This document shows positions 9,144 through 55,600 of a stretch of DNA of 64,000 nt, piece by piece. The notes below the pieces were generated by a model that saw nothing but the letters and a program-made list of their open reading frames with translations, was not told the DNA's origin and ran no database searches. Source of the DNA: an uncultured bacterium (lineage in GTDB: Bacteria; Cyanobacteriota; Cyanobacteriia; CAZCXK01); assembly GCA_964502605.1 (NCBI GenBank), contig CAZCXK010000003.1:19476-83475 (forward strand). Direction: 5' to 3'. Each line of letters opens with the position of its first letter. Position 1 is the first letter of the stretch. The position numbers and the translations under genes are program-made.

Positions 9144-10811
9144 CTACGCAAAGCTCCTGGATCGTTTCAAGCGTCGCCGTTTTTTGCTGTGGCGCGCATC
9201 GGCCTCGTCGGCCTCAACGTCTTCTTGCTGATCAAGCGTCGGCAGTCTCAGTACAACCCCCGCGAAAAACCAGTAGTAAACCGCGACGGGGTCAACATCT
9301 AGGGGGTAATAGTAGGTGTTGTAACTAATAAAGAGCACATAAACCCAGAAGGATGCGCCATAGCTGCGGAGAGTCGGATCGCGCACAGACCGATAGGCCT
9401 TAAACGTTTGAATCGTCAACATGGTCACAAGTGCTAAGAAACACAGCACCCCCAATGGCCCAATTTCATAGAGGACTTTGGGATAGTAAGTTTCGATCAG
9501 CGTTGTTTCTCCCAGTGCCCGCGCCGAATTGGTGGCCCGACCTAAGCCATTGCCAAAAATGCCATTTTGCGATCGCGCCACCCACTCAAACTGACCAACG
9601 ATAAACTGCTGGGGTGGTGAGGCCGCCCAGCGAGATTGAAAGCTAGTAATCCGTTCTTGCATTACCTCTGGGTTGCGAGCAGCAGTGATGCTTAGCAAGA
9701 TCGTGAGAACAAATGCAATTGGCACAAAGCGCTTGAGATTGGCAATTTGCCCTGTCAAAATCAGCAGCAGCACAACCGCCACCGGCACCAGCGCCATCGC
9801 AATTCGCTGACCAGAGAGCACCGACATCACAAACACTGATCCCAGAGCTAATAGGCCCATCGTGCGCCATCGCGCCGTTGGGTCATTAAAGGCGCAGGCA
9901 AACGAGAGAAACCCGGCTGAGATTAGAAACCAACCCCATTGCCATGGAGCCACAAACGTTCCTGGCAAACGAATCTGATTATGTTGAGGGCTATAGAGCA
10001 GTGCGCCCCCGACTAGACAGCGTGCGTTGAGCGACGCCCTAAATAGTTCTGCGCCTTGCTCAAACTGAGTGCCTTCACATCGACCTGTTTTCAAAAATAG
10101 ATATTGGGCAAACCCAAGCGCACAGCAAATCAAAATCAACAAAACGGTGAGGCGCATCAAGAAAAATAAATCTCGTTTGCTGCGCAGGAGATAGTAGGCA
10201 CACACAATCAGGGGGACATAGCCAATCAAAACCTTAAAGCCTAAGATTCCTAATAAAATTGGCTGTTCGCCGCCAGCACTCAACTGTTGACTCCCATTGA
10301 CAACAAGCAGCGTAATCATGCAAACCGATAGCAGAGCCATGAGGGGCAGCATCAGTGGCTTACATACGATGATGGGCAGATTTTCTCGGCGACAATATTG
10401 AATGACACCAATCAGCGCCGGAATGTAGAAGCCATCTTTAGCTAGTTGCAATAATGGGCTGTTGCCGATGCTGTAAGTAATCGTGCCGCCAAAGGGCAAA
10501 TAAATCAAAAATGCCCACAATGCATGTCGGGGATAGCGAAACGATAGCGAGGTATAAAGCACGCCTACGGCTGTACCAAGGCCAGCTTTGGGTTCGGCTA
10601 CTAACCCAATCAAAAACCCGATCAAGGCTGAGAAGAAGACGGCAAAGGCTGTAAAGCTGATGATTTCTTTGCGCAGGCGATCGCGCTTTTTCTTTTCAGT
10701 CAATCGCTCTTTCAACGTCAGCGCTGGCTTCTCTGACTTATTCTGTGTTGTTTTGCTTGACTTTTTTGAGCGTAACCGTCGCCCTGAAGAACCTGACCCT
10801 GCGATCGCCAT
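9144..10811 (-). CDS. Polytopic membrane protein, O-antigen ligase/polymerase (Wzy/WaaL-like) family candidate
   Basis: 555 aa with at least 10 predicted transmembrane helices and a Lys-rich cytoplasmic N-tail. It sits at the end of a three-glycosyltransferase block. Assignment is by architecture and context, not by a strict motif. Confidence 0.5.
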   Translation of the reverse strand: MAIAGSGSSGRRLRSKKSSKTTQNKSEKPALTLKERLTEKKKRDRLRKEIISFTAFAVFFSALIGFLIGLVAEPKAGLGTAVGVLYTSLSFRYPRHALWAFLIYLPFGGTITYSIGNSPLLQLAKDGFYIPALIGVIQYCRRENLPIIVCKPLMLPLMALLSVCMITLLVVNGSQQLSAGGEQPILLGILGFKVLIGYVPLIVCAYYLLRSKRDLFFLMRLTVLLILICCALGFAQYLFLKTGRCEGTQFEQGAELFRASLNARCLVGGALLYSPQHNQIRLPGTFVAPWQWGWFLISAGFLSFACAFNDPTARWRTMGLLALGSVFVMSVLSGQRIAMALVPVAVVLLLILTGQIANLKRFVPIAFVLTILLSITAARNPEVMQERITSFQSRWAASPPQQFIVGQFEWVARSQNGIFGNGLGRATNSARALGETTLIETYYPKVLYEIGPLGVLCFLALVTMLTIQTFKAYRSVRDPTLRSYGASFWVYVLFISYNTYYYPLDVDPVAVYYWFFAGVVLRLPTLDQQEDVEADEADARHSKKRRRLKRSRSFA

Positions 10812-17307: not shown

Positions 17308-18492
17308 TCAAACTGGGAGCAACGGAGAAACCAGTTCAGACGCAGAGAGGCCCAACACTGCTGGAATTGATGGCTCTGGTGTAGACAACAAGGTTTTTGC
17401 AACTTGCAGCAAACAAATGCCTCGGTTGCCAAAAGGTTCTAGATAATAGAGCCGGGCTCGAATCGACTCTATCAATGCTAGCCCCGCAAACTGCATTATC
17501 CGCGTTAGCACATCGGGGCGGGCATTGACCAACGCCGGAAACTGCGTGAAATATGCGCGCAAAAATGCAATCATCGACGACTGGAGTGTTTCGAGTGGTG
17601 TGGTGGCAGACCGCAGAGACGTTTGCATATCGAGATCAGGGCTTACTACTAAACTCTTGAGCCAAATTTTGAGAAAATCTGCAATAATCATGCCGACATC
17701 ACTAGCCGGATCGCCCCAAATCCATTTTTCCCAGTCAATGAAGCGAATCGCAGGCTGGGGTACCCCAGCCTGTAAGTGAGACGACAGACCATCCCAATCG
17801 GTGTGCAACAGAATGTTGGTAAACTTCAAATCATTGTGGGTCAGACAGCAGGGAGTAAACGCTTTATTTAGAGCGGCGATCGCCCCTCCTAAGCTGTCAT
17901 AGCGCTGATACAGTTCATAAAATTTCAGCCCATCAGTAGCCACATTGCCAAAGATTTCAGGCGTAATTCTAGCCAGCCCATGACTCAAATCGGGAGGCTG
18001 ATCGAGTGGGTCATCGTCAAGCTTGCTCAGCGTTGTCTGAAACGTGCCGTGGTGAAACGTGGCCCTATGAACGGTTGCTAAGGCAGTACCTAAGGCCTTA
18101 GCAACCGCATCTGGAAATATCTGGTTGTGTTCATAAAACTGGTCTAGGTCACTATAGTTGTTGAGATAGTGAAACACCAAAATGGCATTTTCCGCATCCG
18201 CATCAATTGCAACTGAAAGCAGGGATTGCAGCTTGGCCAAATCAACATGCGATCGCATCCCTCGATAAAGCTGCCATTCATGCTCCAAATCTCGACGGGT
18301 GTTGCCCGCTTGATCATGGGGCTCTTGCTTGACTAGAAGAGAGCGATCGCCCGCTAAATGGACGAGTAAATTGAAGTTCTTAAAGATTTTAGGCTCAATG
18401 GTCGCACCCCGAAGGTCTGCGTTCGTGCAAAGATTTCGAGTGATTAAATACTCTAAAACAGTATCAGTTCCAAGAATTAAAGGCATTTTCAC
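17308..18492 (-). CDS. Protein-kinase-fold phosphotransferase (APH / CotS / choline-kinase-like family)
   Basis: An N-terminal lobe with a conserved Lys context (LLVKQE) is followed by the catalytic-loop motif HNDLKFTNILLH (compare HGDLhpgNil) and the downstream IDWEKW (compare IDWE), as in aminoglycoside-phosphotransferase-type kinases. Confidence 0.65.
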   Translation of the reverse strand: MKMPLILGTDTVLEYLITRNLCTNADLRGATIEPKIFKNFNLLVHLAGDRSLLVKQEPHDQAGNTRRDLEHEWQLYRGMRSHVDLAKLQSLLSVAIDADAENAILVFHYLNNYSDLDQFYEHNQIFPDAVAKALGTALATVHRATFHHGTFQTTLSKLDDDPLDQPPDLSHGLARITPEIFGNVATDGLKFYELYQRYDSLGGAIAALNKAFTPCCLTHNDLKFTNILLHTDWDGLSSHLQAGVPQPAIRFIDWEKWIWGDPASDVGMIIADFLKIWLKSLVVSPDLDMQTSLRSATTPLETLQSSMIAFLRAYFTQFPALVNARPDVLTRIMQFAGLALIESIRARLYYLEPFGNRGICLLQVAKTLLSTPEPSIPAVLGLSASELVSPLLPV

Positions 18493-23570: not shown

Positions 23571-24026
23571 TTAAGTATGTGGGAATAGTGATGCAGACAG
23601 CTGATCCTTTAGGTATCGGATATGAGGGGTAACTACGTTTTTATCAAGGATATCATCTGACAGAAACCTCGCACCTTTAATGATTCCAAGGCACTGCTCT
23701 GCCCCACAGACGCATGTAAACGGGCGTTGCATTTCCCACTCTGTGCTGGGGTAAAAGAACGTCAATTCTTCGTGAGCATTAATATCTTTGAGTGCCCGTA
23801 GACCCATCATTTTTAGATCGATCATGATGTTGGGATCACAGGAATGATTCAGGTATATCACAGCATCTTCCCAAAGATGCTGGTCAGAACTAATTTGAAT
23901 ACTTTGATATGTAGGCTGATTCAGTATCATGTAGTTTTTAATTTGATAAAACAGCGTGTCCTTTTTAATAGTATTTAGAGAAATTAGACGCTTTCCTAGA
24001 GCCTGATCTTGTTGAACATAAATCAT
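23571..24026 (-). CDS. SET-domain protein (putative protein-lysine methyltransferase), 151 aa
   Basis: NHSCDPN motif, EELTFFY (ELxF/DY) and a post-SET Cys cluster CVCGAEQC. The gene is markedly AT-rich compared with its neighbours. Confidence 0.7.
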   Translation of the reverse strand: MIYVQQDQALGKRLISLNTIKKDTLFYQIKNYMILNQPTYQSIQISSDQHLWEDAVIYLNHSCDPNIMIDLKMMGLRALKDINAHEELTFFYPSTEWEMQRPFTCVCGAEQCLGIIKGARFLSDDILDKNVVTPHIRYLKDQLSASLFPHT

Positions 24027-24096: not shown

Positions 24097-27000
24097 CTAG
24101 AAAGTTGTTCCAATCATGCTAAGTAGATATTTATGTACCAACGTTTCATCAACATTTGGACAGACGATTCCACTACCACGCAACGCTGTAAGAGTCTGTT
24201 GGCAATCAAATATCTGGCTACCAGATAGCCAACCTTCTAATCGACCTAGCTGCTGCTTTGAGATCGAGCCAGGGTCGGTGATCATTTGGGCTAATGGGCC
24301 AAGAGCAGAATCATGGGTCTGAATCAGAGCTTTCCAATGCTGATAGGGAACCTGCTCAACAGCGTAGCCCAAGCGATTCATCTGGTGAACAACATGATCA
24401 AACACAATCGGTTGAGGATTAACCAGATGAAATGACTGACGAAACGAGGTCGGCTGACGAGACAGATAGACCGTCGCTTGGCTGACATAGTCAACCGGAG
24501 TCATATCAACTTTAAAGTCGAGCTTGGGAGCCACCTTAAGCTCAAGAAAACTTTTGAGCAAGCGCCATAAGACATCGTCTGGATTGCAAATACCACTGGC
24601 TTGACTGCCGCTAATCATGCCAAGGCGATAAATACAGATTGGTAGCCCCGCTTCACCGGCACGGGAGACTAACTGTTCGGCAACCCACTTGCTTTGAGCA
24701 TAGCCTCCTGTAATTTTCTCTCCTTGGGCGATCGCCTCATGTTCATAAATGGTGGCATCACTTATTGCCATGCGAGCCTCAAAGACATCTAACGTAGACA
24801 TAAAATGTATTGGCTTGAGCTTGCCATGGTTAGCAAACGCCAAGATTGACCTAGTTCCGACCACATTCACAGCTTTGAGCGCAGCATAGGGAAGAACCAG
24901 GTTGACGTTAGCGCCGCTGTGATAGACCACATCGACCGTCGTAGCTAAGGTTTGAAATGTATTTCTCGGCAATCCGAAGAGCGGTTGCGCCAAATTGCCC
25001 ACAACAGGGATGATGCGAGAATAAAAGGGATTCAGATCAAGTTTATATTTCTGAGCGGTTTGGCGGAGCTTTTGATAAGCTTCCGTCAAATTTTGAGCCC
25101 GAATGAGGCAATAAATTGTAGCGTCTGTCTGCTGCAAGAGTTCCAACAAGATGGCAGCACCGATAAATCCAGTAGCCCCCGTTAGTAGAACTGACTGGGG
25201 AACCGTCCAGTGAGTTTGATCTGCGACCTTAGCCTTGAGGGTAAAATCTAACGTCGCCTCAGCCTGTAACTGAAGCAGCGTTACTTGCTTAGGGATAGCT
25301 GATACGGCGGGACTCTGAATTTGCTGAGCCAGACCACTGATGGTAGGTCTATGAAAAAATTCCTCCAGCGACAGGCTAACTTGATGAGTCTGTTCGACAT
25401 GAGAAACTAACTCCATCAACCGGAGTGAATTGCCGCCTAACTCGAAAAAGTTATCGTGTAGACCAATCGCTTCAATTTCTAGCACCGTTGACCAAATCAT
25501 CGAGAGGTCTTGCTCAAGAGGAGTGGTGGGCGCGACAAAGTCCACATCTAAGTCAGGCCTGACCTGACCCGGTGTAGGCAACGCCTGGAAATCGATCTTG
25601 CCGTTAGGTGTTAGAGGCACCGAGTCAAGCGTGACAAATGCCGAAGGCACCATATAGGCAGGTAGTTGCTGCAGCAAATAGGAGCGTAGTTCTCGGGAAA
25701 GGTAATGTGCTGCCTTTTCCTGGAGTGGATTATTAGCATAGGACTGCCAAGATCGTTGGGTTCGACAACTCTGAGGCGACAATGATGCGATTGGTAATAG
25801 TTGCACATCACCATCCAGTGGCGATCGCCGCTTAATCAAGACATCATACGATCCTTCTACTCCACCTGCGGCCCAACTCAGTGTGACGTCATATGGCACC
25901 TCTCCCAAGCGGTGCCATAGGTCTTCTGGATTAACTCCCTTAGAGGAAGTCTGGTGTGTGAGGGCTTGCCTGAGTTCTCCCACCGTTATGGGGCAAGCCT
26001 CCTGACGCAACATCTGCAATGCCCAGACAGCTGCTAACACCCGTGCATTTGGAACCTTGTGAATGCCCAAGACTGGAGGAGGGCATTCACCATTTAGCAG
26101 GTGGTGTAACGCGGGCACCGTCAGTTGATGTTGTTGCCAGTCTAGCCAGGGATACTCCTCTGGAATCAAAAGCTCAGCATCAATCCGCAGGATGGCGTCA
26201 TAGCGAAACTGAGTCAGCTCATTCTCAAACTCACCTCGTTTCAACAGCACTTGCACCTGGCTAACTTGCGGCAGATGCTGCTGAAGAGCACTAAAAAATT
26301 CGGGATCAAGGGTCAGTTCTCCTTCCTGATCAAGTCGCTTTTGAATGCGATCGCGCAGAACATCAGTTGACATATCATCAGGAGCTTGAAACAGCTCAAC
26401 GGACGCAGCAAAGGTTTCTTGCAAGACATAGTTGCGAATGTCTCCAATGAAAATGACGCCGCCCGGTTTAACTAGTTCGACCGCCTGCTTGATGACCCGT
26501 AGGAGATAGGCAACACTGGGAAAATATTGAATAACAGAGTTAATAATAACCGTATCAAACGACTGGGGTTCTAGCCCTTCTAAGCGATCAGCCATCCGCT
26601 GTTCCAGCACAACCTGAGGTAGATTTACAGACGGATGGTTGAGTTGCTGGTTGACATACTCTAATGCAGCTGTAGAGAAATCGATGCCAACATATCGCAG
26701 ACAAGAGGGGGCAATGCGAAAAAGCAAGAGCCCTGTGCCACAGCCAATTTCTAAAACCTGTTGAGGCCGATAGGTCAAAATTCGCTCGACTGTGTGGTTG
26801 ACCCATTCATGCATTTCACAGTCAGGGATGAGTGCTTCGGTATAGCTACTCATCCAGCCGCTGATGTTAAATGTACCGTCCCAGCCTGATTTAGCAGGAT
26901 TTAGATAGTCATCACTGTGAATGAAACGCCATTGCTTAATTTGCTCTGCTTCTAGTTGAGAAAGTCCAGCCTCGTTCAGGTGCTTCCGGTCAGTCAAAGC

Positions 27001-28401
27001 ATTCACAACATAGGCAACCAGATATTTGCCTCCCAAAGTATCGTCTCTGGCCACAACGATGGCCTCTTGCACAGCAGCATGTTGCGCTAGAACTAGTTCA
27101 ATTTCTCGCAGCTCAACGCGAAAGCCACGAATTTTTTCCTGGCGATCGCCCCGATCTAGAAACTCTAGATGCCCATCAGAGCGAGATCGCACCCGATCGC
27201 CAGTCTTATAAAGACGAACTGGAAGGTTGCCATGTAAACTCACAAACACAAACTGTTTGGCCGTCAGCTGCGGACAATTGAGATAGCCCCGAGCCAAACC
27301 GGCTCCGCCAATGTAGAGATCGCCAATTTCACCAGGACGAACGGGTCGTCTATCTACATTCAGAACATAGGTTTGAATATTGGAGAGCGGCAACCCAATT
27401 GGCACTAGTTCAGTATCAACAGCAACGGCATTGGAGCCAACTAAGTCGCAGCAGGTTGCAATCACTGTCGATTCGGTGGGGCCATAGGCATTGATCAGCC
27501 TTACCTGAGGGCTCACATAGGCCTTCCACAGGTCTAGCCATCGAGGCAGTGCTCGTTCTCCACCAATCAACACCAAACGAATCGTAGATGGAAAAGGGAT
27601 AGTTGTTAAGCCACCACACAGTTTGTGCCAGAAAGCTGTTGATAGGTCTAATACCGTTAGTTTTAAAGTATCGCACGCACTGAAAAAAGCAGACACAGAA
27701 TGGAGCATATCAGGAGAACGCAGCACAAGTGTCGCCCCTTGTGTCAGAGTAATGAAAATTTCCTCAACTGCGTGATCAAAACTAATTGACGAAAATTGTA
27801 AGACGCGATCGCCCGCTACAACCCCATAGGCATCTCCTGCGGCTTGGGCAAAATTGACCAAGGCTCGATGTTCAATCATCACGCCTTTGGGCCTGCCAGT
27901 GGAGCCTGAAGTATAAATAACATAGGCCAGATTGTCGGGAATTGCCAGCGGTTCAGGGTTTTGCGCGGGTTCTTGAGCAATGCGCTCCCCATCAGTTTCT
28001 AAACAAACAACCTTAGTTGGATACGCTGAAAACCATGAAGCCAAAGGATGCTGGCACAACATCACTGCAACTTGTGAATCACCCAGCATCACGGCTAAGC
28101 GTTCTTCAGGATAGTCAGGATCAAAGGGCACATATGCGCCACCCGCTTTGAGAATGGCTAGCACCCCTACAATCATGGCAGGCGATCGCTCAAAATGGAG
28201 ACCAACCAACACCTCTGGAGCAACATTTAATCGTCGCAAATAGTGAGCCAGACGATTAGCCTGCTGGTTTAACTCATCATAAGTCAGATGCGTATTACCG
28301 GAAATTAGGGCGATTGCATCGGGAGTTTCAGAAACCGTTGCTTCAAACCATTCGTGAATGCAAAAACTGTAATCCTTCGTAGGATGGGAGAAGATAGACA
28401 T
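24097..28401 (-). CDS. Single-module non-ribosomal peptide synthetase-like enzyme: adenylation domain with embedded SAM-methyltransferase, then PCP, then a C-terminal thioester reductase (A(MT)-T-R)
   Basis: A-domain core motifs YTSGSTGRPKG (A3), NAYGPTESTV (A5), GEIGDLYIGGAGLARGY (A6), YKTGD (A7) and GRxDxQxKIRGFRVEL (A8). An inserted methyltransferase carries VLEIGCGTGLLL. Motifs A9/A10 follow (LPAYMVPSAFV...NGKID), then PCP (FFELGGNSLRLMEL) and a reductase Rossmann motif (LLTGATGFIGAAIL) in an SDR-like domain. Confidence 0.85.
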   Translation of the reverse strand: MSIFSHPTKDYSFCIHEWFEATVSETPDAIALISGNTHLTYDELNQQANRLAHYLRRLNVAPEVLVGLHFERSPAMIVGVLAILKAGGAYVPFDPDYPEERLAVMLGDSQVAVMLCQHPLASWFSAYPTKVVCLETDGERIAQEPAQNPEPLAIPDNLAYVIYTSGSTGRPKGVMIEHRALVNFAQAAGDAYGVVAGDRVLQFSSISFDHAVEEIFITLTQGATLVLRSPDMLHSVSAFFSACDTLKLTVLDLSTAFWHKLCGGLTTIPFPSTIRLVLIGGERALPRWLDLWKAYVSPQVRLINAYGPTESTVIATCCDLVGSNAVAVDTELVPIGLPLSNIQTYVLNVDRRPVRPGEIGDLYIGGAGLARGYLNCPQLTAKQFVFVSLHGNLPVRLYKTGDRVRSRSDGHLEFLDRGDRQEKIRGFRVELREIELVLAQHAAVQEAIVVARDDTLGGKYLVAYVVNALTDRKHLNEAGLSQLEAEQIKQWRFIHSDDYLNPAKSGWDGTFNISGWMSSYTEALIPDCEMHEWVNHTVERILTYRPQQVLEIGCGTGLLLFRIAPSCLRYVGIDFSTAALEYVNQQLNHPSVNLPQVVLEQRMADRLEGLEPQSFDTVIINSVIQYFPSVAYLLRVIKQAVELVKPGGVIFIGDIRNYVLQETFAASVELFQAPDDMSTDVLRDRIQKRLDQEGELTLDPEFFSALQQHLPQVSQVQVLLKRGEFENELTQFRYDAILRIDAELLIPEEYPWLDWQQHQLTVPALHHLLNGECPPPVLGIHKVPNARVLAAVWALQMLRQEACPITVGELRQALTHQTSSKGVNPEDLWHRLGEVPYDVTLSWAAGGVEGSYDVLIKRRSPLDGDVQLLPIASLSPQSCRTQRSWQSYANNPLQEKAAHYLSRELRSYLLQQLPAYMVPSAFVTLDSVPLTPNGKIDFQALPTPGQVRPDLDVDFVAPTTPLEQDLSMIWSTVLEIEAIGLHDNFFELGGNSLRLMELVSHVEQTHQVSLSLEEFFHRPTISGLAQQIQSPAVSAIPKQVTLLQLQAEATLDFTLKAKVADQTHWTVPQSVLLTGATGFIGAAILLELLQQTDATIYCLIRAQNLTEAYQKLRQTAQKYKLDLNPFYSRIIPVVGNLAQPLFGLPRNTFQTLATTVDVVYHSGANVNLVLPYAALKAVNVVGTRSILAFANHGKLKPIHFMSTLDVFEARMAISDATIYEHEAIAQGEKITGGYAQSKWVAEQLVSRAGEAGLPICIYRLGMISGSQASGICNPDDVLWRLLKSFLELKVAPKLDFKVDMTPVDYVSQATVYLSRQPTSFRQSFHLVNPQPIVFDHVVHQMNRLGYAVEQVPYQHWKALIQTHDSALGPLAQMITDPGSISKQQLGRLEGWLSGSQIFDCQQTLTALRGSGIVCPNVDETLVHKYLLSMIGTTF

Positions 28402-28763
28402 GCAATCTAGTTGTCTCTCATCGAGACTCGATATATTAGCACCGCTGACATCTCAGTGTAATACCAAATTACAGACTTGGTGTCTGCTTCTAGCAGCTAT
28501 TGAGAGTCTTTCATTCTAAACTGCCTAATTAACGAGATGTTTCAACAGTTCCTGCACTCGCTTTTGCATCACGATCAGATGCAAACAGATCCCAATCACC
28601 CGAACTGACTTGACATCATTGGGCATCCAGCGCTCGTCTGAGCAGGTCTTAAATCTTTCCACCATTCCAACGACCGACATAGATGAGTATTGCGTCGATC
28701 TGAATCAGCACGCCCTGGCCAAAATTTTTGGTGTCATAGTATTAAGATTATTTACATTCGGTC

Positions 28764-28948
28764 TGTGGAAAAGCACCTATTCTCTGTGGAGAACTGGTGA
28801 ACAGGCCAGGGAAAACCTTTAAACTCAAGGGGGAAAGTTCTCATGAGTATTTATACTCTGTGAGAAACTCAATCAGTTATCCCCATGTTTTCCACAGGCT
28901 ACATGCGTTGTGATTTCCTTTCCGAAACTGATCCCCCACTTTTCCACA
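28764..28948. promoter_or_regulatory. Cluster of DnaA boxes (TTTTCCACA type) upstream of dnaN; candidate chromosomal replication origin core
   Basis: Two perfect TTTTCCACA boxes at 28888-28896 and 28940-28948. One perfect reverse box TGTGGAAAA at 28764-28772 and a one-mismatch reverse box TGTGGAGAA at 28785-28793. A 90-nt AT-rich stretch (28961-29050) follows before dnaN. Confidence 0.55.
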
Positions 28949-29182
28949 GTTTCCCCAGGCTCTACTACTACTCTTACTTTTAAATAGATTTTAAAGATTC
29001 CTTAGCTTTACAAACCAGATTTAGCAAAATTGAACCTTTTTTTCAGGAGTGATAGGATCTCGTTCCAGGCTGATTCATTGCATCAGTGCAACTCCACTGG
29101 TCTCCGATTGTCATCATCGAGCTGGGGGCGCTACGGATTCACCTGTTTCTCCGTGCTATTGTTTCATTGGTTTCTGAGCATT

Positions 29183-30364
29183 ATGAAATTCACCTGTGCC
29201 CAAAGTGAACTCAACACTCATCTTTCGCTTGTGAGTCGGGCGGTGCCCTCGCGCCCTAGCCATCCTGTTTTAGCTAACGTATTGCTCCGAGCAGACGAAA
29301 AAAAACAGCGCGTTAGTCTAACAGGGTTTGACTTGAGTTTGGGAGTTCAAACTAGTTTTCCTGCTGAGATTGAGTCAGGAGGCGATTTGACTCTTCCAGC
29401 TAAGCTATTGGGAGATATTGTTTCGCACCTATCTGAGGGAAACATCACCTTGAATGATGACGCTGGAGCGGCGATGGTCACGCTGACGTCTTCTTCTGGT
29501 CACTACCAGATTAGAGGTTTAGCAGCTGATGAATTTCCAGAACTCCCCATGATTGAAGATGGAGCTGTGGCCTACGTGTCTGTCGATGCGTTGCTAGATG
29601 GGTTGAAAGGTGCTTTGTTTGCGTCCAGTACTGACGAAACTAAGCAGGTTTTGACGGGTGTGCATCTGATGAGTGAGTCAGATAGCCTGGAATTTGCTGC
29701 GACGGATGGGCATCGGTTAGCCGTTGTCCAGACGCTTAATGTCCGAGATGACGAAGCTACACCTCCTGCATCGGCCAATGAAATGGCCAATGAGGCGAGT
29801 CAGGTTGCGGCACTCAATGTGACAGTACCTGGAAAGGCGCTACGTGAACTGGAGCGAATGTTGCAGATTCACCCGGCTTCAGAGGCGATCGCCCTTCAGT
29901 TTGATCCGAGTCAACTTGTGATTGAATGGGCTAATCAGCGGCTGACAAGCCGCCTATTAGAAGGTCAATATCCCAACTATCGGCAGCTGGTGCCCAAGCA
30001 GTTTTCTCGGCAAATGACAGTGGAGCGGCGATTGTTTATTAGTGCCCTCGATCGCATTGCAGTGTTAGCTGATCAAAAGAACGGTATCGTCAAGCTAAGC
30101 TTAGATTCGACTCGGCAAGCTCTTACCTTAAGTGTTGATGCGGCAGATGTAGGTAGTGGCGAAGAATCAGTTTCGGCGCAGATTTCTGGCGATGATTTAG
30201 ATGCGGCATTTAATGTACGGTATCTGTTGGACGGCCTCAAGGCGTTTAATACATCTGAAGTGCAAATGCAGTTTAATTCATCGACGAGTCCGTCGGTGCT
30301 GACTCCTCTCGGCGGGCTGAAGATTACCTATCTGGTGATGCCTGTTCAAATTAGAGGAAACTAA
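29183..30364 (+). CDS. dnaN: DNA polymerase III beta sliding clamp
   Basis: From ATG 29183: MKFTCAQSELNTHLSLVSRAVPSRPSHPVLANVLL... is the canonical DnaN N-terminus, with three-domain length. The six-frame ORF's upstream extension (29030-29182) is not supported. Confidence 0.85.
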   Translation: MKFTCAQSELNTHLSLVSRAVPSRPSHPVLANVLLRADEKKQRVSLTGFDLSLGVQTSFPAEIESGGDLTLPAKLLGDIVSHLSEGNITLNDDAGAAMVTLTSSSGHYQIRGLAADEFPELPMIEDGAVAYVSVDALLDGLKGALFASSTDETKQVLTGVHLMSESDSLEFAATDGHRLAVVQTLNVRDDEATPPASANEMANEASQVAALNVTVPGKALRELERMLQIHPASEAIALQFDPSQLVIEWANQRLTSRLLEGQYPNYRQLVPKQFSRQMTVERRLFISALDRIAVLADQKNGIVKLSLDSTRQALTLSVDAADVGSGEESVSAQISGDDLDAAFNVRYLLDGLKAFNTSEVQMQFNSSTSPSVLTPLGGLKITYLVMPVQIRGN

Positions 30365-44807: not shown

Positions 44808-44830
44808 TACATCTAACCTTACTCACAACC

Positions 44831-45196
44831 TTATCCACGTAGTAGCTGCTTTACAGTTCCAACCAATTCAGTCGGTTGGAATGGTTTTGCAATGTATGCA
44901 TCCGCCCCTTGTTTCATGCCCCAGTAGCGATCGAACTCTTCTCCCTTAGACGAGCACATGACCACAGGCACGTTCTGGGTTTTGGGATCAGCCTTTAGCC
45001 TGCGACACACCTCATAGCCGTTCATTCTAGGCATTACAATGTCTAATATGACAAGATCAGGACAGTGACCTTTGATTTGTTCGAGCGCATCGACGCCATC
45101 ACTTGCTACTGTCACGTCGAGACCGCTGCATTTGAGGAGGTCTGTAATCATTTCCCGTTGGGTCACGCTATCTTCTACTACTAGAACTGTACTCAT
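44831..45196 (-). CDS. pilH: CheY-like single-domain response regulator (PilH/HmpB type)
   Basis: 121 aa with VLVVEDS, DLVILDIVMPRMNGYEV and the conserved Lys in YIAKPF. Confidence 0.85.
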   Translation of the reverse strand: MSTVLVVEDSVTQREMITDLLKCSGLDVTVASDGVDALEQIKGHCPDLVILDIVMPRMNGYEVCRRLKADPKTQNVPVVMCSSKGEEFDRYWGMKQGADAYIAKPFQPTELVGTVKQLLRG

Positions 45197-45265
45197 AACT
45201 GCCTACCTGTTAACCGTCCAAGGAAACGGGAAAGATGCTTGCCACTCATCCTCATGATTGTAGAG

Positions 45266-46585
45266 TCAGGATAGGATACTTTGCGATGCCCCGCTGTAAG
45301 ACTCGAATGGGATCGGCGTTGAGTCGGGGATATCAATTTCTAACTCATCTTCGAGTGCTTCTGCCAGTAGTTTGCTGGATCGAGTGGACTGTTGAGACGT
45401 ATCGAGGTGGCCTTGACCAATATATTTCTCTACTAATGTAAGCAATTCTTGCTCTCCAAAGGGTTTTGTTAAGTAGTCCGTGGCACCGACAATGCGGGCT
45501 TTGATGCGATCGATGAACCCATCTTTGCCTGTTAGCATAATGATAGGGGTCTGACGAAACGTTTTTGATTGCCGCAGCATGGCACAAATTTCGTAGCCAT
45601 CAAGTTCTGGCATGGCAATATCGCAGAGAATCAGATCTGGCTTGATTTTGAAAGCTAAGCTGAAGGTGTCTAACGGATTAGCGATCGCGGTGATCTGATA
45701 TCCACGATGATTCAAAATATATTCAACGGCCTTCCGAATCGTGACTCCATCATCAACGCAAATTATCGTCTTCAGGGCATTGGAGGCAGCAGCAGGGTGA
45801 TGAGTGGCCTGTAAACCCATTAAATTATTTGTTGGAGAATAAATTTGCACCAGCCCTTGCTGAACGTAGGGATAGAGTGCTCTGGCAATGGTTAAGATAT
45901 CTCGATTGAGATATCGAGCCATTTGTCTAATGGACGTTTTGCCATCAACCCAGCGCTCTAGTGCGTTAAATGTGCTCTCCTTGAGGCTCTCGCGCAGAGG
46001 ATCAGGATTAGCGATCGCCGGACAGTGATCTGGAGATTTGAGGTGGGGATGAAGCTGCTTCCATTCCTGGATTTGCTTCATAATAGTGCTGACTAGGGAG
46101 CTGATTTCAAGTGTGGTGAGCTGGGGCACAAGGGGTGGGCTAATCTCGAAGGTAAACGCCCCTTGATGCAGGCTCAGCAGATCAAATAGCGTTTCATGCA
46201 CCATCCCTTGAATTATGGTTCGCACCTGAGCAGGAGTAAGCACATGATTTTCTAACAGAGCCCACAGATGGCCATATTCGGGAGCATTGACAGTGGCAAT
46301 TGATGAGACGCTGATGTCATTGAGGTCGGCATGAAGCTGATACCGTCGGAGATAATCGCGCAGTCGGTCTAAGTTGCCGCTGTTTTCACCCGCATAGATG
46401 ATTTCTCCATTCAGAAAAAAGACAAACCATGACAATCCGCTAGAGGAAAGGCGAGAAGGGCGATCGCGATCTAAAGGTCGCCTAAGAGAGCTATAGGCTT
46501 CTACAAAAAGCTCCCCCGTCCTCTGGCCTAACTCAATGAGCTGCAAAATGCTGCGAATATCGATTTCGTTCAGCTCGCCTTGCAT
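45266..46585 (-). CDS. pilG: PatA-subfamily response regulator (N-terminal PATAN domain plus C-terminal receiver); PilG/HmpA type
   Basis: The C-terminal REC domain has TIICVDDG...LILCDIAMPELDGYEICAMLRQ...IIMLTGKDG...DYLTKPF. The N-terminal roughly 280 aa resemble the PATAN domain found in PatA/PixG/PilG regulators. Confidence 0.7.
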   Translation of the reverse strand: MQGELNEIDIRSILQLIELGQRTGELFVEAYSSLRRPLDRDRPSRLSSSGLSWFVFFLNGEIIYAGENSGNLDRLRDYLRRYQLHADLNDISVSSIATVNAPEYGHLWALLENHVLTPAQVRTIIQGMVHETLFDLLSLHQGAFTFEISPPLVPQLTTLEISSLVSTIMKQIQEWKQLHPHLKSPDHCPAIANPDPLRESLKESTFNALERWVDGKTSIRQMARYLNRDILTIARALYPYVQQGLVQIYSPTNNLMGLQATHHPAAASNALKTIICVDDGVTIRKAVEYILNHRGYQITAIANPLDTFSLAFKIKPDLILCDIAMPELDGYEICAMLRQSKTFRQTPIIMLTGKDGFIDRIKARIVGATDYLTKPFGEQELLTLVEKYIGQGHLDTSQQSTRSSKLLAEALEDELEIDIPDSTPIPFESYSGASQSILS

Positions 46586-48225
46586 GTAATTACAACACTC
46601 TCCTCAATATTGCTCCAGTTTGGTTGAGCGCAAGTCAGTTTTTTCTTAAGCAGTCATGATATCAACAGATTTAAGCAACAACTCAACCCTGAGCCGTTTC
46701 TAACCTTGATGCAAAAATCTAAATGCAGAAAATATTTAATCAATACAGTTTCATCTATGTGATAACACTATAGCTCTCTGATCGAGCCTGGATCGAAAAC
46801 CCGATCTTTTGTAATTTCTCACGTTGTGGTGAATGTCAATTTATATAGCCTCCAATCTCTACAAGGCTTAACATATTTTTTGCTCCATACAATTCTTAAG
46901 CTGATTGGGTCGATCCATTTACATTTTGTGACCAAAGATTCTGTCTGAGTTCTGGTTTTATGTGATACCAGGCATCAATAGACACAAATAAATCGGGCCA
47001 ATGTCAAGAAAGGAGTACGAGAGAAAGGAGTGCGAGAGAACAGATCCTGAATTTATTTTTTTTGCAGTATTTGCCGTCAACCGACAATTTTAGACTCGCT
47101 TGGGTGCGAAGAGAGGAAGAACCATCAAGAGGCTATTACAGAGGTGTCTTGCCCTGTGTTGCCAACACCCCTGTAGGTGGAAAACGACGCACTTATATCT
47201 GCCATGTTTACAACAGTCTAGAGAGACTAACATTGCATCCTACACAGCTTCAAACTGTTTAAGGTTGACTGCTCACTCAAAACATTTGTCTGTATAATGT
47301 TGCCCAATCGTCAATTTAGTGGGGCATAGAGCATTGGCAAGCTTCCATCAGTCCTGCATTATGGGGGGTCTGAACAGTCGATATCAACAGTATCAATGTC
47401 AATGTCGTCAGGCCAAACATGCTGAAAATCATATCTAGGGACGCCTGCGTTAATCTAGACAGGCTACCCCTGATTATGCGGATTCAGACGATGGGTTCCC
47501 ATATCATTTACAACAGTTGAGAGGTCACCGCACAACATGATAGATGACTGTATGATTGTGCGCCTTCTAAATAGGAAGCCTTAATTAAATAACGTCGTTA
47601 AGTGTACTGCTGGTTAACTGGCAAAACATGAGCCTCTCATCCCCCTACCCCTTCTCCCACAAGGGCGAGGAGGAGTCAGAGCGATTTAGTTCATCAAAGT
47701 CCTTCTACTGCTCTGGAAGAGGTTTGTAGGGCGAGGACAGAAGACTTTTATTAGTCGATCAGTAATGTACTGGGCTGTCGCCACAACACACTGTCGGGGT
47801 TAGCTGCGGTGCATTTAGCTTTACAAATAAATGAAGGCCATTTACTTAGGTTTACTATGATAATGCCTTTCCCCAAGTTGACTCCAGACTACTCTGATCG
47901 CTTAGAATTGGCGGATAGGGCAAGGTCAACAGAGCTATGTCAGGTAAGCTATGCTTTGCCAGTATCAAGAGTACGTTTCATTAATCTGATGATTCAGTAC
48001 AGCAACTTGAGGGCTAGTAGCGCAATAACACGAGTAGGTCAGCAACAATAGGGAAACATCGCCAATTGCTGCAGAATTTTGTCAGGCGATAAATAGTCTT
48101 TACATAGCTTTCAGGATGTTGTTTAGCCTGACATTATCTCCTTAAAACTGAATTCAAGCAGGTGAGCTTAATGCTCAAATGCTTATCTTGGGATCGAGCC
48201 ATAGACACGAAAGAGGATTATCAGC

Positions 48226-49977
48226 GTGCTGTATTTAGCAGAAGTACAGAAGAAGACCAGAGTAATTGGAAGCGGCAAAGTTGAATTCAAACTACTAGCT
48301 TGTCAGCGGTCTGAAAACAGCTGGAGTGCTATTGGCGAAGAAACAATTCCCGCTCCTGACGATGTGAACTATAACTCTGGAGCCTTGGTCATGGTCGATT
48401 TGTCTACTAATCGCCAAGTCCAGCGACATATGGAGGCAGGACGCCAACTCGTCAGTATCTTACAAAATTTTTCACGACTGCAGGAAAAGTTTAAAACTCA
48501 AGAAGAAGAAATCGAACAGTGGAAGCAGTCGCTAACTTATCAGAGTCAAGAACTTAATCGTCGGGAAATGGAGATGGAAGCCCGACAAGAGCAGCTTCAA
48601 CAAATGGAAGAAGACTTTGAACGCCTAGAGCAACAGCGCCAAGAGATTGAAGCAGCGCGTGAGGAAGCCAATCGGTTGCAAGAAGATTTTTCTCGAAAAA
48701 CGCAAGACCTTGAAGGTGCATGGGCCCATTTAGACGGCGAAAAACAGCGTCTAGAAGAACAACGGGAGCAAATTCAGCAGAAGCCAGGGTTAGACGGAGA
48801 ACAAGCCCGACATATTCAAGAATTGCTGTACCGGATTTCAAGTACTGTGGCTCCGACAGAATCTGTTCGAGATCACCTACGTATTTCCTTTGAAATTGTG
48901 GAACAGCAACAAGGAAATTTAGATCAATATTGGCATACTCTAGAGACGCAGCACGCTTCGGCTCAACAGCAGCAAGATGAGGTCAACCAGCAAGGGCAAG
49001 AGATCCACGAATGTTGGCAGCAATGGCATCAAGCGCAAGAATCTCTCGAACAGGCTCGTGCTGAATTGGGCTGGCAAAAGAGTGCTTTGGACGCAAAGCG
49101 CGATGCCGTCCAGGCATTGACGTCTCATGTTCAGCAACAGACCAATTTATATGAACAAACTCAGCAACTGGCCGACACTGGGGTTGGCTCCATTGCGCGG
49201 GTTGATGTGGAAGCGCTTGAGAAAAAGCCGCTTGGTCAGCTGCAGTCAACTGTTGAAGATCTAGAGCAAGAACTAGAGAAAAATTCTCGGTTTGTCAGTA
49301 GCCAAGAAGAAGAGTTATCACTTCAGCGAGAGGAGATAGAAAAGCTCCAGGTGAAGATGCAGCAAGCGAGTGAGTATGATCGGCTCAGCTTAGAGGCTCA
49401 GATTGCTGATGAGCAGGAGAGCTATCGCATGCTCAATGAGACGCTGGTTGGTCAGCGGCGCAACTTACAGGAGAGAGAAGCCGTTTTGAAGCAGCATCAA
49501 ATTATTCTCGCGCGTCGCCAAGGTCTGCCTCTAGAGACAGGCCAACCCAACACCATCAATGTAGACCCACTACTTAGACAAATTGATGCCATTCGGCAAC
49601 ATCAGATTCAAGAATTGCAAAAGTTGGAGGAGCAGGTGCGACAACTGCAGCTATCTGTGGATGAAGCGGAGCACCGGGTAACCCATCAAACGCAAGCTCA
49701 AGAATCTACTCTGAATGATTTGAAACAGCTAGAGCAAGATTGGAGGGCTAAGAATGTAGCGGTTGCAGAGTTGTGGAGCAAGCTCAACACGTATGAGGAG
49801 GTGCTACAGCCCGTTCAAGCGAGTCTCAATAGTCTCCGAGAGAAGCTAGATGCGATCGCCAATCTGATGGCTCAGTTTCAAGAGTCGAGTGACTACCAGT
49901 TGCAGTCGATCAATGAAATGCAGCAGCAAGTTCAGCAGTTGACTGATGCCGTATCCCCTGAGCTGGCAGCATCATAA
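48226..49977 (+). CDS. hmpF: Coiled-coil protein, HmpF-like (pilus/motility polarity factor encoded divergently from the hmp/pil chemosensory operon)
   Basis: A roughly 100-aa globular N-terminus (MLYLAEVQKKTRVIGSGKVEFKLL...) is followed by about 480 aa of Q/E/L-rich heptad coiled coil. It is divergent from the PatA-type regulator gene, the same arrangement as hmpA/hmpF in Nostoc punctiforme. The symbol is given on architecture and synteny only. Confidence 0.5.
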   Translation: MLYLAEVQKKTRVIGSGKVEFKLLACQRSENSWSAIGEETIPAPDDVNYNSGALVMVDLSTNRQVQRHMEAGRQLVSILQNFSRLQEKFKTQEEEIEQWKQSLTYQSQELNRREMEMEARQEQLQQMEEDFERLEQQRQEIEAAREEANRLQEDFSRKTQDLEGAWAHLDGEKQRLEEQREQIQQKPGLDGEQARHIQELLYRISSTVAPTESVRDHLRISFEIVEQQQGNLDQYWHTLETQHASAQQQQDEVNQQGQEIHECWQQWHQAQESLEQARAELGWQKSALDAKRDAVQALTSHVQQQTNLYEQTQQLADTGVGSIARVDVEALEKKPLGQLQSTVEDLEQELEKNSRFVSSQEEELSLQREEIEKLQVKMQQASEYDRLSLEAQIADEQESYRMLNETLVGQRRNLQEREAVLKQHQIILARRQGLPLETGQPNTINVDPLLRQIDAIRQHQIQELQKLEEQVRQLQLSVDEAEHRVTHQTQAQESTLNDLKQLEQDWRAKNVAVAELWSKLNTYEEVLQPVQASLNSLREKLDAIANLMAQFQESSDYQLQSINEMQQQVQQLTDAVSPELAAS

Positions 49978-52663: not shown

Positions 52664-55600
52664 CTAGAGCTTTGGCAAAATTTCAGGCAGCAACGACCCC
52701 GGAAGTAGCGAGAGCGCAATATTTTGTCCTTCCAGACCTCCTTTATTAAAGAAGGCACGAACCGTTTGAATGATGCACTGCAGCGCTGTTTGCCGCAGCT
52801 CTAACCGATGTTGCCAGCCTTGAAAAGCCACAATGTGGTTTTTCAGGGACGCTTTGAGACAGTCTGACCAGTTTGTGCCAACCAGAGTGATGTGAGCATC
52901 ATTAACGAGTTCATAATGAACTAGACCCAAATTATTATGCGTCGCTAAAACATCGAAATTGAGAGGTACAGGCCCTCCCGCTGCAGATGAGAGCTGGTGC
53001 ACCGCTGTTAGAGCACTGTCATAGGCGGCGATCGCCCGTTCGAGGTAATCTCGTTTCGTCTCAGGATTATCGTTTGTATGGGTAGCCATATGCCAATAGG
53101 CCGTGCCCAAGTTATTTTGCGTGGCGGCAAAGGCCAGCGGAGCCTGCTCCATCGTTCGATATTTCAGAGCCATCCGATAGGCACCCAGGGCTAGGGCCAG
53201 CCAATCTTGAGGCTGGTCATACTGAGCCAAGTTCCAGTAGGCGGTGCCCAGATTGTTTTGAATCATGGCATAGTTGAGCGGCTCTTGTTCTGGGCGATAG
53301 TATCTCAGAGCTTCGGCATAGGAGGCGATCGCCTGTTTGAGATAAACCCGAGGCTCATGATGTTGAGCCAAATTCCAGTAGGTGGTGCCCAGATTATTCT
53401 GCGTTGAAGCATATCGCATCGGATCATCTTCCGCTTTGCGGTAACGCAGGGCTTCTTGATAGGCTTGCGTCGAACGTTGAAGATTTTCCACAGGGTCTTG
53501 ATAGCGTGCCAAATCACCATGCGCTGCCCCCAAATTATTTTGAATCATGGGATAGGTTTGCGGATGAGTTTGGGGTGAAATTTTAGTTAGCGCCACTTGA
53601 TAAAACTGGATACCCTGCTGCAAATAGGGTAATCCTTGATCGGGGCTCGGCGACGATCGCGACAGCAGCCAGCATAGGTTGCCCATATCATTGAGCACTT
53701 CGGCCCAAAGCGGCGACCCATCATCGAGCCAGCGCAGCACTTGCTCATAGGCACTCATGGCCGCCATCAGCGTCTGGGGCGACGCATTGCCTTGTTCAAT
53801 GCGATCGCGATAGAGATTACCCAACGCTCGATACGCATGAGCCAACACCATTGGCTCTGCTCGACGGCGATGCAGCTGCTCAATCTGATTCAAAAAGCTC
53901 TGAGCTTGCGGATCAGATGGCATATCCTGCCGATGCAGGTCTGCATCCCCAGGGTCTGATCGGTTGGCCAACCGATCAGACGTTGCAGCCTCTTGAGTAG
54001 CCTTGACAGAACCTTGCAACGACCAATCTAAGAAATCCGGTTCTGCATCAACGATATCCAGCTCGTTCAGATCGAGTTCATCGAGAATGTCAGGCTCGTT
54101 AGCGCTGCCGCTGCTAAGTGGAGTCCCCATCGGCGCAGCATCAGCCGCTGCTGGAGGAGGGCTATATCCGGTGAAGTCAAGCTCATCCGCTTCAATCTCT
54201 TGACTGATGTTAAACCTCGATGAGACCACGTCTACCGCAGTGATATCCATCTCACCACCATCCCAGTCATATTCGAGGTTTAATCCAGCATCGACGGGAT
54301 CAATCTCGGTGATAGGCAGGGATTCGCCGCTCGCAGATGCTGCTTGAACCTGACTACTATCAGTTGGTGCAATTTCTAGACTATCTGGACTGTCTGAGTG
54401 GGCAGAATTGGCATTAGCACGATTGATATTGACATTTACACGAGATCCAGCGGTTCTATCCGTGCGACTCGGTGGCACAGATGTCACCGGAACTGACGAC
54501 GCAGCTTGGGGCGGAAGGGACAGCGTCTCGTCTGGGGTATCAGATGACACGAAAGACCGAGTCGGTTCTGGAGGCGGAGCCGACATCGGACTAGGGGCGC
54601 GCTCTGACTCCGACGGGGCAAAATCAATCTCATCGAATTCTGCGACATCGGCTTCGATATCCGACAACGAAATCGGCTCATGTGACTGCCCCGTGAGGTA
54701 GATCGCGTCACTCACTCTAGCTGCCGACACTGCATTCCGGCTGGGGCGATTTGCAGAAAACGACCGTACCGGAGACCCGACAGTCTCGTTCGAGGGCAAG
54801 GGTGGCGATATAGGTCGAGCCACGCGATCGCCAGAAGGATCTGGCAACCTTGCCTGAGAGTTTGGAGTCGGCAATTGCGAGTCTGCGACGGGCGGAGAAC
54901 TCGCTCGGGCTGGCTCGACAGGCTTCGACACTCCCATATCAGACGACGTGGGGAGTGGGGTGATAGCTGCAGACGGCTGACGGTCAGACGGTTTGCCTGA
55001 CTGGCTCTGGGAGTTTGACGGATGATTAGCAGACGGGGCTGGTGTAGACCGAGAGGGCGATGATTCTGAAGGGGACAGTGGATTGGATTGGGAAGTAGCC
55101 TTGGATGACAACGGAGTTTGAGTCTGGGGCTCGGCAGACAGAGAGTTGGATGGAGCAGCAGGAAGGCGATCGCGCTGAGATGAAATTGAAAGGCTGGGCG
55201 GCGGCGGCGGCACCGCTGCTGCTGGAGACGGAGCGGTCAGAGGTTGACGGGGTGCCACTGGTTGACGAGGCGATCGCGGCTGATGTGATGGCGCGGTCGA
55301 GGACAGCTGTTGGGGCTTTTGTCGCGCTACAGGCGTAGGTTCTCCCACAAAATCAAACAGTGCAGTGCGGCAGTGCCAAAATTCAGGCGCAGACTGAGGA
55401 ATAATCCGCACCCATGGACGGGGCATCCAAAACAAGATGCTCGATTCGAGTGCAGGAAGACTACGCTCAATGCCCTGTAAATAGGTGAGGAACAGCCACT
55501 GAACTGAGGCTGGCTGGCGGCTGAGCAACTCAATCCCCAAAATCTGAAAGGCTGGCATGGGCATTCGCACTCCACCCTGCTGAGGCGGAGGAAATTTAGC

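Follow-up and report, generated by a model that had tools for sequence, protein, structure and literature searches.

A likely DnaA-dependent chromosomal replication origin upstream of dnaN in an uncultured Elainellaceae-like cyanobacterium

Where does a cyanobacterium that is known only from metagenomes start to copy its chromosome? The question is raised by a stretch of 64,000 nucleotides from such an organism (GenBank assembly GCA_964502605.1, contig CAZCXK010000003.1; the whole 64-kb stretch is referred to as the window), in which binding sites for the initiator protein DnaA crowd the intergenic DNA directly upstream of dnaN, the gene of the DNA polymerase III beta sliding clamp. An earlier reading of the letters (the original prediction) had noted four such DnaA boxes in inverted arrangement next to an AT-rich segment and had likened the locus to the replication origin of Synechococcus elongatus. 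Following up this proposal, we conclude that positions 28764-28999 are very probably where DnaA-dependent replication of the chromosome begins (oriC) in an uncultured Elainellaceae-like cyanobacterium, and that this origin, judged by its sequence, is a homologue of the oriC next to dnaN in S. elongatus PCC 7942. The case is carried by a conserved cluster of boxes, by an adjoining unwinding module that closely resembles a biochemically tested one, and by the strand composition of related genomes around the same place.

A conserved cluster of DnaA boxes

In cyanobacteria, TTTTCCACA is the accepted DnaA box; its discovery goes back to the region upstream of dnaN in S. elongatus, which has 11 repeats, 7 of them perfect (PMC4674748, PMC10225481). 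The predicted oriC adjoins dnaN in 55 of 68 cyanobacteria (PMC4674748), and the origin near dnaN of S. elongatus has been mapped experimentally, with DnaA binding there and dnaA being essential (PMC7198777). In the window, three perfect copies of TTTTCCACA and one box with a single mismatch lie within 185 bp, in intergenic DNA 235-419 bp 5' of the dnaN start. All four occur at the positions given in the original prediction, and the inverted arrangement described there holds as well, as two minus-strand boxes are followed by two plus-strand boxes, so that these four strongest boxes are convergent. The downstream gene is indeed dnaN, with all three beta-clamp Pfam domains; its start codon was set by alignment with homologues.

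A count of the motif had been proposed as a check of local enrichment, and it came out in favour of the cluster. The whole 64 kb contains four perfect boxes, three of them inside the 185 bp, while 200 sequences simulated from an order-1 Markov model of the window had a mean of 0.6 perfect boxes and not a single case of two within 200 bp. When up to one mismatch is tolerated, 14 matches are found in the window against 16.6 expected, i. e. there is no global enrichment. Because this relaxed motif is not enriched window-wide while the perfect boxes cluster, the signal is a local box cluster rather than a window-wide excess. The fourth perfect TTTTCCACA (53484-53492, plus strand) is isolated inside an open reading frame (ORF) of 1099 aa (52664-55963, minus strand) and could be either a chance occurrence or a single DnaA site.

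For comparison, the dnaN loci of 80 related cyanobacterial species were collected, and MAFFT alignments were made of the window with 46 relatives and with the two closest ones (loci L084 and L085; DnaN proteins 84 % and 76 % identical). Across the 80 species, the density of perfect boxes is 4.6 per kb within 1 kb 5' of dnaN and 0.018 per kb over the other 1.22 Mb, an enrichment of about 250-fold at the orthologous place, and an equivalent cluster is present in about 75 of them. The layout recurs, too: minus-strand boxes come first, often with a spacing of 21 bp and, in some species, with more at +43 and +30, followed by a plus-strand pair 11 bp apart and, about 54 bp further on, by two abutting plus-strand boxes. 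The window reproduces this order, orientation and spacing (21, 11, ~54, 9 bp). The nearest named DnaN proteins belong to Elainellaceae and Leptolyngbya-like cyanobacteria (70-76 % identity), and copies of the locus identical to that of the window occur in stromatolite metagenomes.

Mapping the footprint of the relatives onto the window yields nine positions for boxes, of which five are on the minus strand and the other four on the plus strand. Three match the consensus, and those with three mismatches are called by homology only. The four boxes of the original prediction were correctly placed but are an undercount, as five further degenerate boxes sit at places that hold perfect boxes in relatives. 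The boxes and the downstream gene are:

28764-28772, minus strand: DnaA box L1, perfect TTTTCCACA, about 90 % conserved in the 46 aligned relatives
28785-28793, minus strand: DnaA box L2, TTCTCCACA, 1 mismatch, at a distance of 21 bp from L1; the closest relatives, L084 and L085, have a perfect box here
28807-28815, minus strand: degenerate box L3, plus-strand letters CAGGGAAAA, 3 mismatches; GGAAAA conserved, and L084 has CGTGGAAAA (1 mismatch) in the same place
28829-28837, minus strand: degenerate box L4, plus-strand letters GGGGGAAAG, 3 mismatches; position matches perfect boxes in relatives L058, L064 and L078 (spacings 21, 43, 30 bp)
28859-28867, minus strand: DnaA box L5, TTTCTCACA, 2 mismatches; conserved place, its distances from L4 (30 bp) and to M1 (18 bp) being those of the relatives
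28877-28885, plus strand: DnaA box M1, TTATCCCCA, 2 mismatches; TTATCCACA in L084 and TTTTCCACA in L085
28888-28896, plus strand: DnaA box M2, perfect TTTTCCACA, from motif match and alignment
28940-28948, plus strand: DnaA box R1, perfect TTTTCCACA, upstream box of the unwinding module, from motif match and module
28949-28957, plus strand: DnaA box R2, GTTTCCCCA, 2 mismatches, abutting R1; L084 has the identical variant
29183-30364, plus strand: dnaN, beta sliding clamp of DNA polymerase III (393 aa), with its ATG start at 29183 and its stop at 30364

From L1 to R2, the start-to-start spacings amount to 21, 22, 22, 30, 18, 11, 52 and 9 bp, which is near-identical to the spacings of relatives with perfect boxes at these places (e. 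g. 21, 43, 30, 18, 11 and 54 bp in L058). The 21-bp gap is the commonest one between minus-strand boxes of the relatives (64 pairs), and the 11 bp between M1 and M2 recur in 52 of their box pairs. From the conserved letters and its counterpart in L084, L3 is probably a low-affinity DnaA site. For L4, we infer the status of a putative DnaA site from its position.

The unwinding module

Boxes R1 and R2 open a module that corresponds to a basal unwinding system known from other bacteria, in which tandem boxes are followed by a short spacer and a row of trinucleotides, the DnaA-trios. On the plus strand of the window, positions 28940-28982 read TTTTCCACA GTTTCCCCA GGCT CTA CTA CTA CTC TTA CTT TTA. 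Its parts beyond the two boxes are:

28958-28961, plus strand: G+C-rich 4-nt spacer GGCT between R2 and the trios; 4 nt long in 51 of 52 relatives (commonest GGCC, GCCC and GGCT)
28962-28982, minus strand: DnaA-trios, plus-strand letters CTA CTA CTA CTC TTA CTT TTA, minus strand 3'-GAT GAT GAT GAG AAT GAA AAT-5'
28969-28999, either strand: putative duplex-unwinding element, least stable 31-mer TACTCTTACTTTTAAATAGATTTTAAAGATT, overlapping the distal trios; nearest-neighbour free energy -30.7 versus a window mean of -42.7

The minus-strand trios are predicted to be the single strand that is bound by the DnaA filament. Four published search criteria for the basal unwinding system (PMC8287927) were applied to the window. 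They allow up to two mismatches to the species motif in the first box, and R1 has none. An optional tandem box may carry up to four mismatches and lie 0-3 bp off; R2 has two and abuts R1. The spacer from the box to the first trio may extend to 16 bp and is most commonly 13 bp long, which is exactly the distance here (9 from R2 plus 4 from GGCT). Finally, at least three consecutive trios of the form 3'-NAN-5' are expected, with GAT preferred nearest the box; the window has seven, the first three of which are GAT.

The module pattern matches once in the window. Among the relatives it is found in 52 of the 80 species, always 5' of dnaN and in the orientation of that gene; the rest of the loci has no match. 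When the loci are aligned on the last box pair, the conserved core consists of TTTTCCACA, [G/T]TTTCCACA, the 4-nt G+C spacer, CTACTACTACT and AT-rich DNA; TTTTAAAG of the unwinding element is conserved as well. For the trio motif CTACTACTA, the chance expectation is 0.08 per 64 kb. With a z of 3.6, the duplex at 28969-28999 ranks in the top 0.014 % for low stability, a level reached at only four places in the 64 kb, and forms the minimum of the intergenic region. The original prediction had suggested that the AT-rich segment 28961-29050 as a whole could serve as the unwinding element. Its AT-richness is real (68-74 % A+T in 50-nt windows across 28951-29050) and the stability minimum lies inside it, but the segment is in fact composed of the trios, the unwinding element and the predicted dnaN promoter described below. 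To the left of L1, reading of the sequence revealed no trio-like stretch and so no sign of a second unwinding site there.

The closest known counterpart is the module of S. elongatus PCC 7942, which reads, 3' to 5', AAAAGGTGT AAAAGGTGT CGGG GATGATGATGACTAG with a spacer of 13 (supplement to Pelliciari et al. 2021, PMC8287927). In vitro, unwinding of this cognate scaffold by the DnaA of S. elongatus requires the boxes as well as the trios (PMC8287927). Both the window and the oriC of S. elongatus PCC 7942/6301 have TTTTCCACA boxes in intergenic DNA directly 5' of dnaN, with dnaA elsewhere, and in both, abutting plus-strand boxes are followed by a 4-nt G+C spacer (GCCC in S. elongatus), CTACTACTACT trios at distance 13 and AT-rich DNA beyond. 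The two differ in that the window has three perfect boxes among nine instead of 7 among 11, with the second tandem box weakened to GTTTCCCCA; it also has no GATC immediately following the trios, a gene resembling non-ribosomal peptide synthetases (NRPS) is the neighbour on the upstream side, and its origin is known from sequence alone. In B. subtilis, the origin is bipartite around dnaA, and the unwinding module lies between dnaA and dnaN. The window instead has a single block, with dnaA unlinked, and TTTTCCACA boxes in place of the TTATCCACA box of B. subtilis. It nonetheless shares the module itself with the basal unwinding system of that species (DnaA-boxes 6/7 plus trios; Richardson 2016, Pelliciari 2021), in which an ATP-DnaA filament starts from the tandem boxes, forms on the 3'-GAT-5' trios next to the G+C spacer and thereby opens AT-rich DNA; the same mechanism is presumably at work here. 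The resemblance to oriC of E. coli is more general. With its left and right DnaA-oligomerisation regions, this origin likewise has two opposite arrays of high- and low-affinity boxes at roughly helical spacing and an unwinding element at the outer end of one array (PMC10325909, PMC13643167). The window differs from it in having no 13-mer repeats, no identified IHF site, trios instead of E. coli-type unwinding motifs, and other neighbouring genes. Overall, the element is an ordinary case of a described kind, with a near base-for-base match to a biochemically tested module.

Origin, relic or regulatory site?

GC skew offers a further line of evidence, and a switch of its sign near the cluster had been put forward as a check. 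Within the window, the skew changes from -0.034 in the 10 kb left of dnaN to +0.014 in the 9 kb to its right. This shift of +0.048 has the expected direction, but a quarter of the positions (25 %) equal or exceed it, and the cumulative GC skew has only a local minimum near 29 kb while its global minimum in the window is near 45 kb. The relatives give a clearer picture. Pooled, their skew is -0.027 left of the cluster and +0.027 right of it (n = 48, p = 4.6e-5), and the shift also holds for plus-strand genes, for minus-strand genes and for non-coding DNA when each is taken by itself. Divided by the presence of trios, the relatives behave as follows:

Trios present by pattern match, n = 37: skew -0.039 to +0.035, 86 % positive, p = 4.6e-7
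Trios present by an independent trio score, n = 38: change +0.074, 89 % positive, p = 4e-8
Tandem boxes without trios, n = 10: change -0.025, 30 % positive, not significant
No trios by the trio score, n = 20: change -0.020, 40 % positive, not significant

Species with and without trios differ in their skew change with a Mann-Whitney p of 7e-5; as the species in all of these tests share phylogeny, the p-values are optimistic.

A region near 45 kb was tried as a second origin and rejected. The only other CTACTACTA of the window (45175-45183) lies inside a small gene for a CheY-like receiver (~44830-45196, minus strand), whose residues VLVVED it specifies, and its surroundings are free of DnaA boxes.

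The weighing of a regulatory role for the boxes requires a look at the control region of dnaN itself, for which the phylogenetic footprint points to the following element:

29030-29058, plus strand: predicted dnaN promoter, -35 TTGAAC, 17-nt spacer, extended -10 TGATAGGAT

Its conserved blocks are AAATTGAACC at 29027-29036 and GGAGTGATAGGAT at 29046-29058. The motif occurs within 300 bp 5' of dnaN in 28 of 77 loci, versus 17 matches in about 2.5 Mb elsewhere. A generic promoter and terminator scan of 28300-29300 returned nothing relevant and missed this promoter because only 8 of 12 consensus positions match; the promoter is thus predicted from its conservation alone. Between the end of R2 (28957) and the start of the -35 element (29030) there is a gap of 72 bp, and 28958-29182 contains no box with up to two mismatches, so that boxes neither overlap nor directly flank the -35 and -10 elements. 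The leader of dnaN (~29065-29182) is not conserved among the relatives, and an Rfam search of the whole window yielded zero families, leaving the leader without a known riboswitch. As a side observation, a longer ORF with a TTG start (29030-30364, 444 aa) begins within the -35 element; the homologue P0002, annotated with 446 aa, seems over-extended in the same manner.

Several points weigh against an active origin at this site. Only three of the nine box positions are consensus and two deviate by three mismatches. The share of window positions with an equal or larger skew shift has been given above, and the largest local shift (+0.12) is found near 45.8 kb. There is no switch in gene orientation, minus-strand genes predominating on both sides of the site, and neither a Pfam search of ten ORFs of suitable size nor a six-frame scan of the 64 kb for the GKTHL/DHTTV signatures detected dnaA, so that its presence in the genome is presumed. 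Above all, several cyanobacteria replicate without DnaA while keeping both DnaA and boxes (PMC7198777), and a box cluster alone is for this reason no proof of firing. Whether the cluster fires in the organism of the window is the main residual doubt.

It is in this light that a relic or a purely regulatory site has to be considered, at which DnaA would merely tune dnaN while replication starts at other or multiple sites without it. This is how Synechocystis PCC 6803, Synechococcus PCC 7002 and Nostoc PCC 7120 replicate, all of them with irregular skew, while the skew of cyanobacterial clades C-G is mostly V-shaped (PMC7198777). DnaA can, moreover, act as a transcription factor (PMC7198777), the last box is followed, 73 bp further on, by a conserved dnaN promoter, and the skew of the window itself is not decisive. 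Furthermore, 19-29 of the related species keep boxes without trios and without a skew switch, from which it follows that box clusters can outlive origin function. What such a site would not need, however, is the full module of tandem boxes, 13-nt spacing, seven trios and a stability minimum, and the boxes and the promoter do not overlap. The relatives that carry the module switch their skew strongly at exactly this place. In addition, published trio scores (PMC8287927) are low for known DnaA-independent species, with 7 for Nostoc 7120 and 5 for Synechococcus 7002, and also for Cyanothece 51142 of the same irregular-skew clade, with 3, whereas S. elongatus, Thermosynechococcus, Gloeobacter and Prochlorococcus score 15-16. 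The dnaN- or dnaA-linked clusters of Nostoc PCC 7120, Synechococcus PCC 7002 and Cyanothece ATCC 51142, cyanobacteria with irregular GC skew, share with the window the TTTTCCACA boxes near dnaN; what sets the DnaA-independent Nostoc and Synechococcus strains and Cyanothece apart from it is that their GAT trios are weak or absent (3-7), whereas the window has the full module. We therefore regard a relic or regulatory role as unlikely.

Far less probable still is a datA/DARS-like locus that titrates or recycles DnaA, or an origin that serves a plasmid or secondary replicon. DnaA-box clusters away from oriC do occur in other bacteria. The cluster considered here, however, shows synteny with dnaN across 80 species, and titration loci are devoid of the trios and the unwinding element that are present in it. 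Housekeeping genes in the window, i. e. cysS, serS, a leuA-like gene and a signal peptidase gene, argue for a chromosome and not a plasmid, and no replicon-specific initiator gene adjoins the cluster. As for a functionless accident of T-rich and CCACA words, the unremarkable window-wide number of one-mismatch motifs would be in line with it, yet the simulations, the enrichment in 80 species and the base-for-base conservation in 46 relatives exclude a chance origin of the cluster, and we consider this explanation next to impossible. The original proposal of an S. elongatus-type oriC upstream of dnaN is thus upheld by the box cluster, its conserved location, the matching unwinding module, the stability minimum, the lack of dnaA in the window and the chromosomal context.

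If the site acts as a DnaA-dependent origin, a sequence of events may be proposed by analogy with work on B. subtilis and S. elongatus. DnaA would bind the three consensus boxes L1, M2 and R1, and ATP-DnaA would then fill the six weaker ones, most of which follow at approximately helical-repeat spacings (21, 22, 22, 30, 11 and 52 bp, with 18 and 9 bp as exceptions). Weak and strong boxes together would form two convergent arrays, one of five minus-strand and one of four plus-strand sites. From R1 and R2, the DnaA filament could extend across GGCT onto the minus-strand trios at 28962-28982, where it would stretch and open the weak duplex at 28969-28999 for loading of the replicative helicase. 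The promoter at 29030-29058 would drive dnaN away from the origin, and dnaN expression might thereby be open to control by DnaA occupancy.

Surroundings of the origin and what it may mean

Two short elements within the region deserve mention, together with the genes on its left:

28845-28858, either strand: palindrome GAGTAT-TT-ATACTC between L4 and L5, perfect, with arms invariant in the two closest relatives
28930-28933, either strand: GATC upstream of R1, possible methylation site, 10-12 nt 5' of R1 as in 20 of 52 module-bearing relatives
24097-28401, minus strand: NRPS-like single-module gene, divergent, left of the origin, with adenylation, methyltransferase, carrier and terminal reductase domains
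23571-24026, minus strand: gene of a SET-domain protein beyond the NRPS-like gene, from domain search

The palindrome may be a candidate site for an origin-associated regulator; AGTAT-N1-3-ATACT is present in 10 of the related loci. A second GATC follows directly after the trios in 13 of the 52 relatives and in S. elongatus, and is missing from the window. GATC clustering like that of E. coli oriC was considered as a defining feature and rejected, since GATC is enriched only 1.5-fold in the origin regions of the relatives; the origin of the window contains two such sites. The gene upstream of the origin varies among the relatives. Further to the right, a gene with DUF4388 and receiver domains (45266-46585) adjoins that of the CheY-like receiver, and the region ~45000-49000 has the lowest G+C content of the window (0.44-0.45), without a box cluster. 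At E <= 1e-5, no Pfam match was obtained for the ORFs 9144-10811 (minus strand, 555 aa), 48226-49977 (plus strand, 583 aa) and 17308-18492 (minus strand, 394 aa).

Conceptually, the locus brings nothing new, as dnaN-linked origins, the TTTTCCACA box and the box-plus-trio module have all been published for cyanobacteria. Its value is that the origin of an uncultured stromatolite cyanobacterium would be pinned to about 240 bp, which anchors the contig on its replicon and gives a point of reference when growth rates are estimated from the coverage of metagenomes. As the original prediction had proposed for the NRPS-like and SET-domain genes, these and the other genes of the window would be origin-proximal, within about 35 kb and in the part of the chromosome where gene dosage is highest.

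A broader idea emerges from the comparison of the relatives. Conceivably, it is the trio module and not the boxes that marks those cyanobacterial lineages that still initiate at a DnaA-oriC, while those in which the trios were lost and the boxes kept would have turned to replication that is independent of DnaA or uses several origins. The idea is drawn from the fact that species with trios switch their skew and species without trios do not, with which the published trio scores agree. We hold it tentatively, at slightly less than even chances; the association between trios and skew is uncorrected for phylogenetic non-independence. A literature search of limited scope found no paper that links the presence of trios to a skew switch, which does not by itself prove novelty. 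So far, the question of DnaA dependence has been tackled species by species, by genetics. If trios indeed track the skew switch, they would provide a sequence-only marker of cyanobacteria that abandoned DnaA-dependent initiation. The organism of the window would then be a DnaA-dependent replicator, and DnaA dependence might be predictable from about 45 bp of DNA.

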